Shown in pieces: positions 23,358 through 24,498 of a stretch of 64,000 bases of DNA (position 1 is its first letter; the number at the start of each line of letters is the position of its first letter). Under the pieces are notes generated by a model that saw nothing but the letters and a program-made list of their open reading frames with translations, searched no databases and was not told where the DNA came from. The DNA is taken from sequence record PV464738.1; one strand, given 5' to 3'. Position numbers and translations under genes: made by a program. The stretch comes from Escherichia phage RCIP0319.

Positions 23358-24392
23358 ATGCAAAAGTTTGACACAAACCTGTTGCAAAACCTTAAGTGGA
23401 TGCAGAACAACGCGCCAAACATCACATCTTTGGTTCAGAAGAAGAGTGACTGGTATGAGCGATATCAAGATCAGTTTTGGATTGACTGGTACAAGAACAT
23501 ATTCAACATTGATACTTGTGATGCAATGGGCATCTATATTTGGTGTGACATCCTATGCATACCAAGGGATTTTGTTGACTTAAGCAACTATGAGCACAAC
23601 TGGGCGTTTGGACCCACACGCGACAACTTCGAAGGGCCGGACAATATCGGCGGCAACTTCTTTGGTGCTGGCGGAAAGGTTGTGAAAAACATCGAAGAAG
23701 CCCGAATACTTCTGAAGCTTCGTTATCTGACGCTTACAAGTGATGGCCGCATAGAAAGCATCAACCGTATGCTTAAGTGGATTTTCAACCGTGGAGAAGA
23801 TTGGGATTACTCTTCATCGCGCTACGCATATGTGGCAGATAATACTCAAGGCGCGGTGTCTTCTTCTGAAGCAACAGACGGCTCATTCCTTCTGTACGAC
23901 TGGCAGGGGTCAACTGAGATTCAGCACGATTATAAACAAGTTCTTTTGAGCCACGGCAACAACGCAGGACTTACCATAAGTGGGGTGGCAGGGACCGTTT
24001 CGCGAATGGCACACCCAGACTGGTATTCATGGGGTAATGGTTCCGGCGCTGGTATTGTCGGCGGCGATACACGACAATATGGCGGCCCTGACTATTACGG
24101 CCAACTGTGCGGTGACTACCCAGGAGAGGCCATAGAGAATTTCGCCAACGCAGTACGGGTCATCAAGACCGCTTCCAGCGGCGAGCCTGTGTATTCTTTG
24201 GCCAATAATCCAAGCGCCCAATCTATTGCACTTCCTTCTCAGGCTGGTGTCAACGTTTGCTATAGCTTCTACATAAAAGTGCTTTCTGAAAACGTGGCTT
24301 CTGTTTCCGTAACAGAGAACAGTGATGCATCGAGTAATGGAAAACTTTTCGACCCAGTGACTGGGCAGTTCTGGTGTCAACGTTTGCTATAG
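23358..24392 (+). CDS. Tail fibre protein, N-terminal part (reading frame interrupted by a 127-bp tandem duplication)
   Basis: 344 aa ORF whose last 40 or so residues are repeated at the start of the next ORF; stop codon lies inside the second repeat copy. Confidence 0.6.
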   Translation: MQKFDTNLLQNLKWMQNNAPNITSLVQKKSDWYERYQDQFWIDWYKNIFNIDTCDAMGIYIWCDILCIPRDFVDLSNYEHNWAFGPTRDNFEGPDNIGGNFFGAGGKVVKNIEEARILLKLRYLTLTSDGRIESINRMLKWIFNRGEDWDYSSSRYAYVADNTQGAVSSSEATDGSFLLYDWQGSTEIQHDYKQVLLSHGNNAGLTISGVAGTVSRMAHPDWYSWGNGSGAGIVGGDTRQYGGPDYYGQLCGDYPGEAIENFANAVRVIKTASSGEPVYSLANNPSAQSIALPSQAGVNVCYSFYIKVLSENVASVSVTENSDASSNGKLFDPVTGQFWCQRLL

Positions 24393-24498
24393 CTTCTACA
24401 TAAAAGTGCTTTCTGAAAACGTGGCTTCTGTTTCCGTAACAGAGAACAGTGATGCATCGAGTAATGGAAAACTTTTCGACCCAGTGACTGGGCAGTTC
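24245..24498 (+). repeat. Perfect tandem duplication, 2 x 127 bp
   Basis: 24245-24371 is identical to 24372-24498 (read base by base); 127 is not a multiple of 3, so the second copy shifts the frame. Confidence 0.9.

Follow-up and report, generated by a model that had tools for sequence, protein, structure and literature searches.

A perfect 127-nt tandem repeat in a predicted baseplate gene of a Wifcevirus phage is probably an untrimmed contig overlap

Does a perfect tandem repeat that interrupts a structural gene belong to the genome of a phage, or was it introduced when the genome sequence was put together? This question is raised by positions 24245 to 24498 of the stretch of DNA analyzed here, which comprises 64,000 nucleotides and is referred to as the window. 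A perfect 127-bp tandem duplication had been described at this site in the initial annotation, and it was confirmed base for base as well as with Tandem Repeats Finder. In the direct base comparison, 127 of 127 positions were identical between two copies that lie head to tail without a spacer. Tandem Repeats Finder reported a period of 127, 2.0 copies, 100% matches and a score of 510.

The complete run with a period of 127 covers positions 24244 to 24498 and is 255 nt long, which corresponds to twice 127 nt plus one additional matching flanking base (C). The repeat unit can equally be written as 24244–24370 and 24371–24497. The length of 255 nt rather than 254 nt is accounted for by this one extra matching base, which is expected by chance in one of four cases. 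The microhomology at the boundaries of the duplication amounts to this single nucleotide and is compatible with chance. A self-comparison with k=25 detected no other long exact repeat within the 64-kb window. As the repeat is the sole long exact repeat found there, chance is excluded as its origin. The features of the locus and of the regions discussed below are listed in Table 1.

Table 1. Coordinates of the repeat, the interrupted gene and related features in the 64,000-nt window.
Feature	Position	Strand	Remarks
Large terminase gene (terL)	1..1461	+	Begins with its ATG at window position 1; Pfam Terminase_3, E=3e-37
Baseplate_J-like gene, intact	22080..23351	+	Pfam PF04865; 99.8% identical to kaset 'baseplate wedge subunit'
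Truncated 5′ part of the predicted baseplate triplex/wedge gene (E217 gp45-like, DUF2612/Phage_Wedge1)	23358..24392	+	344 aa; stop codon at 24390–24392
Copy 1 of the 127-nt unit	24245..24371	+	Putative 3′ terminus of the contig as first assembled; identical to copy 2
Novel copy 1/copy 2 junction	24371/24372		Sequence GACTGGGCAGTT / CTGGTGTCAACG; spanning string GACTGGGCAGTTCTGGTGTCAACG
Flanking junctions of the repeat, beside the novel junction			TCTCAGGCTGGTGTC and GGGCAGTTCAATCTTG
Copy 2 of the 127-nt unit	24372..24498	+	Putative 5′ terminus of the contig as first assembled; identical to copy 1
Mechanical ORF, predicted to be the 3′ part of the same baseplate gene	24406..26223	+	605 aa; GTG start
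Tail-fibre gene, conserved, intact	26234..28018	+	594 aa; PHROG tail protein/tail fibre families, e.g., phrog_5717, E=4e-175
Region homologous to the true 3.7-kb direct terminal repeat (DTR) of the genus	60765..64000	+	Extends past the end of the window

The effect of the repeat on the reading frame follows from its length. Since 127 is not a multiple of three, ORF finders report a frameshift, and one gene of 912 codons appears as two ORFs of 344 and 605 aa. An ORF check returned the same start, stop and GTG positions as the initial annotation. The final six codons of the 344-aa ORF (WCQRLL) are frameshift read-through, and the 605-aa ORF corresponds to residues 308 to 912 of the intact protein, as determined by alignment to the 912-aa protein of Escherichia phage kaset. 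When one 127-nt copy is deleted, a single ORF is obtained; its computed length of 912 codons agrees with the earlier estimate of about 910. No Shine-Dalgarno-like motif was found in the 25 nt upstream of the GTG at 24406, whereas most of 22 other gene starts in the module have one.

The window derives from a myophage belonging to Wifcevirus, a genus with E. coli and Shigella as hosts. For the 3-kb region containing the repeat, 28 phage records with 90–99.4% identity were obtained, the best of which was kaset. Comparison with related phage genes had been suggested as a check in the initial annotation, and it speaks for a single copy. The repeat unit is present once in 28 of 28 records, and the 3,001-nt query spans only about 2,870 to 2,874 nt in each of them. 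Both 127-nt copies map to one and the same stretch of kaset (24256–24383). With one copy removed, the gene has a length of 2,739 nt and aligns with zero gaps to its counterparts in kaset (99.4% identity), ECML-117 (98.7%), Mansfield (94.6%) and Bas98 (89.9%), each of which has one CDS of 912 codons (2,739 nt).

A search of 5.8 billion proteins resulted in one close cluster with 205 members. Among the 15 members listed, 13 have a length of 912 aa and two are flagged as partial. The 44-mer spanning the novel junction had zero matches in the contigs of IMG/VR, the JGI metagenomes and the GTDB genomes, and the 3-kb region had no match among complete E. coli genome records. In an exact-match protein look-up, none of the two ORFs, the fused 912-aa protein, the Baseplate_J-like protein, the fibre or the DNA polymerase was on record; only the conserved terL product and the major head protein were.

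Compared over its whole length, the window is about 96–97% identical to kaset in the structural and replication modules, in which the two sequences are colinear at 96–98% identity. Full-length intact counterparts were identified for 61 of the 65 kaset CDS compared, so the consensus is otherwise clean. The interrupted gene is the only conserved one that is broken. Of the remaining exceptions, one is partial and two had no match, and all three are located in the early region. This early-gene region (52340–60690) is mosaic in comparison to kaset, with blocks replaced or inserted and about 1.9 kb of net extra sequence in the window.

A second fragmented version of the gene is found in the record of phage vB_EcoM_WFC (NC_048195.1), the type phage of the genus, in which three CDS are annotated at positions 558 to 3295. 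Compared to the gene in the window, the WFC gene lacks 2 nt at about nt 258 and has 1 nt inserted at about nt 478, which splits it. The record probably contains a sequencing error here; otherwise, the gene would be a real pseudogene. Because the WFC gene is also fragmented, it is not fully conclusive by itself to argue that an essential gene has to be intact.

The position of the first base is informative about the history of the sequence. The window opens with the ATG of terL, and the circular record of kaset has the same origin. This indicates that the sequence was opened anew at a conventional origin, or rotated to it, once it had been assembled. In the window, terL is present in a 486-aa form starting at base 1, and most public gene calls in the cluster give a 475-aa form with a later start. 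The rotation point therefore depends on the start that is called.

The native ends of the genome are located elsewhere. A terminal repeat of about 3.7 kb has been described for Wifcevirus (Korf et al., 2019). In the WFH record, the two ends are 100% identical over 3,701 bp. The left end of this record corresponds to position 60765 of the window onward, so that the DTR of the genus is about 36 kb away from the 127-nt duplication. A single copy of the DTR region is visible in the window, and the same holds for kaset and other circular records, which fits a collapsed and circularized contig.

A 9-nt iteron-like motif, GATACGGAT, was observed near this boundary. It occurs in tandem as ACGGATGATACGGATGATACG, with three exact copies and one copy with three mismatches compared to 0 expected by chance. 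The motif clusters at two loci only (6625–6890 and 60642–60800), each of which adjoins an AT-rich stretch. The first locus is a long intergenic region that precedes the head protease gene, and here copies on both strands flank the AT-rich stretch. The second locus is located just upstream of the AT-rich stretch to which the left physical end of WFH, and thereby the DTR boundary, maps (about 60765). Both loci are kept at the same places in kaset. Possible roles of the motif are those of an origin, an operator or a packaging site.

The repeat is best explained, with a probability of roughly 90%, as an untrimmed overlap of a circular contig that was carried inside by rotation and does not belong to the phage genome. 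When a de Bruijn assembler outputs a circular path in linear form, the first and last k bases of the contig are identical, and the maximum k of SPAdes is 127. Owing to the long direct terminal repeat of the Wifcevirus genome, short reads would have assembled into a circular path. An assembler of this type at k=127, which could have been SPAdes at its maximum k or MEGAHIT with a preset in which k-max is 127, would have written the circle as a linear contig whose first 127 nt equal its last 127 nt. The place of opening would have been arbitrary and, in this case, would lie within the baseplate gene. Subsequent rotation to the terL ATG, with the overlap left untrimmed, would have joined the contig ends head to tail and created a perfect internal duplicate of 127 nt. 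The repeat with its exact length, the rotated origin, the single copy in all relatives, the restored ORF and the distance to the native genome ends were observed directly; the artefact itself is inferred, as are the assembler, the k used and the order of the steps.

Two readings had been offered in the initial annotation, namely a join artefact at k=127 and a real duplication with a possible consequence for host range. The first is strongly favored by the rotated origin, the single copy in relatives, the restored ORF and the published 127-bp cases described at the end of this text. The second is not supported, and this is also due to the identity of the interrupted gene.

The gene had been labelled as a tail-fibre gene, which turned out to be wrong. 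By sequence comparison, it is a homologue of gp45 of the Pbunavirus E217, a subunit of the baseplate triplex. The N-terminus of its product matches Pfam PF11041 with E=5e-16 and 59.6 bits (cut-off 23.5). This family is DUF2612, which is called Phage_Wedge1 in a newer Pfam release. Residues 4 to 184 match E217 gp45 ('Triplex gp45', PDB 8env/8eon; 8env_K) and likewise Pa193 gp46 ('baseplate wedge 2', 9b45, chain 9b45_v), in both cases with E about 1e-41. A second match, to the C-terminus of gp45, is weak only. Apart from DUF2612/Phage_Wedge1, only PHROG 4797 (no assigned function) and PHROG 587 (structural protein) were matched by the interrupted gene, and no homology to a tail-fibre family was found among these searches. 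The fibre PHROGs instead match the next gene (26234–28018), the counterparts of which are annotated as 'tail protein' or 'tail fiber' in the relatives.

In E217, gp45 and two gp44 conformers form six triplexes that make up the baseplate 'nut', and a loop of gp45 grips the N-terminus of the fibre gp46 (PMC10329688). The gene order is alike in both phages, with a Baseplate_J-like gene followed by the gp45-like gene and a tail fibre. The Baseplate_J-like gene directly precedes the gp45-like gene, and on the basis of this position it was placed as the putative equivalent of E217 gp44, the other triplex subunit. The N-terminal 184 residues of the Wifcevirus protein are clearly homologous to E217 gp45 and Pa193 gp46. 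The protein is, however, considerably longer (912 aa compared to about 500 aa in E217), and the several hundred extra residues have no known family or fold. An AlphaFold model of the intact 912-aa protein, obtained from a 4-row alignment, was unusable with a mean pLDDT of 33.5. The least poor part of this model, at residues of about 299 to 424 (pLDDT 50–59), is rich in beta structure and would be interrupted by the duplication, but no conclusion is based on it.

A consequence for host range is not supported by these results. The split gene encodes a conserved (90–99% identical) predicted baseplate subunit and not a fibre or receptor-binding protein, and the second ORF is devoid of a Shine-Dalgarno motif. 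The relationship between Wifcevirus and Pbunavirus was noted in the BASEL paper, in which the variable receptor-binding fibre is placed elsewhere in the genome.

The strongest competing explanation, although unlikely, is a genuine and very recent 127-bp tandem duplication in the isolate or a subpopulation, which would have arisen through slippage during replication or through illegitimate recombination. Like the repeat found here, real tandem duplications in phage genes lie head to tail within a coding region. The repeat is present in the sequence as given, and a duplication of very recent origin would likewise be perfect, unique to the isolate and the same in the consensus. The length, however, is exactly the maximum k of SPAdes, the boundaries share no more than 1 nt, the duplication is absent from all relatives (0 of 28) and from the three contig collections, and the genome has clear signs of rotation after assembly.

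A genuine duplication would truncate the triplex protein at residue 338 and would be followed by re-initiation at the GTG at 24406, giving a two-part protein, or would mark a defective genome. The stop codon at 24390–24392 is only 13 nt upstream of this in-frame GTG, which makes coupled re-initiation conceivable, and the fragmented gene in the WFC record also counts in its favor. Against it stand the missing Shine-Dalgarno motif before the GTG and the role of the protein, since a frameshift in a conserved structural subunit (six triplexes per E217 baseplate) should be strongly deleterious.

It is quite improbable that the duplication is real and that the baseplate is built from a split triplex subunit, composed of the 344-aa fragment and the separately initiated 605-aa fragment. 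The 344-aa fragment would then hold the wedge core and the fibre-attachment region, and the 605-aa fragment the rest. If true, the large additional part by which the gp45-like protein of Wifcevirus is extended would be separable or dispensable.

A mis-join of another cause, such as merged overlapping contigs or long-read polishing, in which the length of 127 nt is a coincidence, is very improbable. An untrimmed manual merge of overlapping ends would also give a perfect tandem duplicate and the same end result, but the exact length of 127 nt is indicative of a k-mer overlap, and long-read errors seldom yield perfect copies. A real short direct terminal repeat, both copies of which were brought together from a linear assembly by rotation, was rejected as extremely improbable: rotation did occur, and terminal repeats of 266 and 428 bp are known from two SP6-like phages (Korf et al., 2019), but the DTR of the genus is 3.7 kb long, identical at both ends of WFH and about 36 kb off, and the 127-nt repeat is located inside conserved coding sequence without terminus-like features.

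With the repeat regarded as an untrimmed contig overlap, the sequence as it stands is 127 bp too long. Two false CDS replace one conserved baseplate gene, and these might be mistaken for a pseudogene or for a variant in host range. For correction, one copy (e.g., 24372–24498) should be dropped and 23358–26223 annotated as a single baseplate wedge/triplex gene of 912 codons. A perfect tandem repeat with the length of an assembler k, in a genome that starts at terL, can serve as a simple signature in automated screening. The repeat provides no new biology, and its value is one of curation.

Repeats of other kinds were also observed in the window. An in-frame 18-nt tandem repeat with 2.8 copies is located at 7782–7832 and encodes an acidic stretch rich in E, T, P and G in the head maturation protease/scaffold gene. 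In the window, the ORF of this gene encodes 469 aa and is four codons shorter, in frame, than its 473-aa counterpart in kaset. On the minus strand, the gene at 43866–44711 encodes a 281-aa protein, annotated as hypothetical in relatives, with a highly charged region rich in Lys, Ala and Glu. This region is encoded by a degenerate 99-nt repeat at 44284–44465 with 77% matches, and the local AT skew is strongly negative. Compared to the natural in-frame repeat variation in the same phage, the 127-nt unit is out of frame, unique and equal in length to an assembler parameter.

Overlaps of this length have been described for other phage assemblies. A 127-bp k-mer terminal overlap of the SPAdes type was reported for one of them (PMC5923482), and 127 bp were removed from the sequence of phage U136B (PMC8104045). 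For phage AXL1, a 127-bp end duplication was removed after PCR and Sanger sequencing, which reduced the genome from 64,089 to 63,962 bp (PMC9206674). The repeat in the window is like these three overlaps in that it is perfect, exactly 127 nt long, located at an arbitrary position apart from the true ends and gone when one copy is removed. In the three published cases the copies were found at the contig ends and were trimmed, whereas here they are adjacent and internal and cause a false frameshift in a gene.
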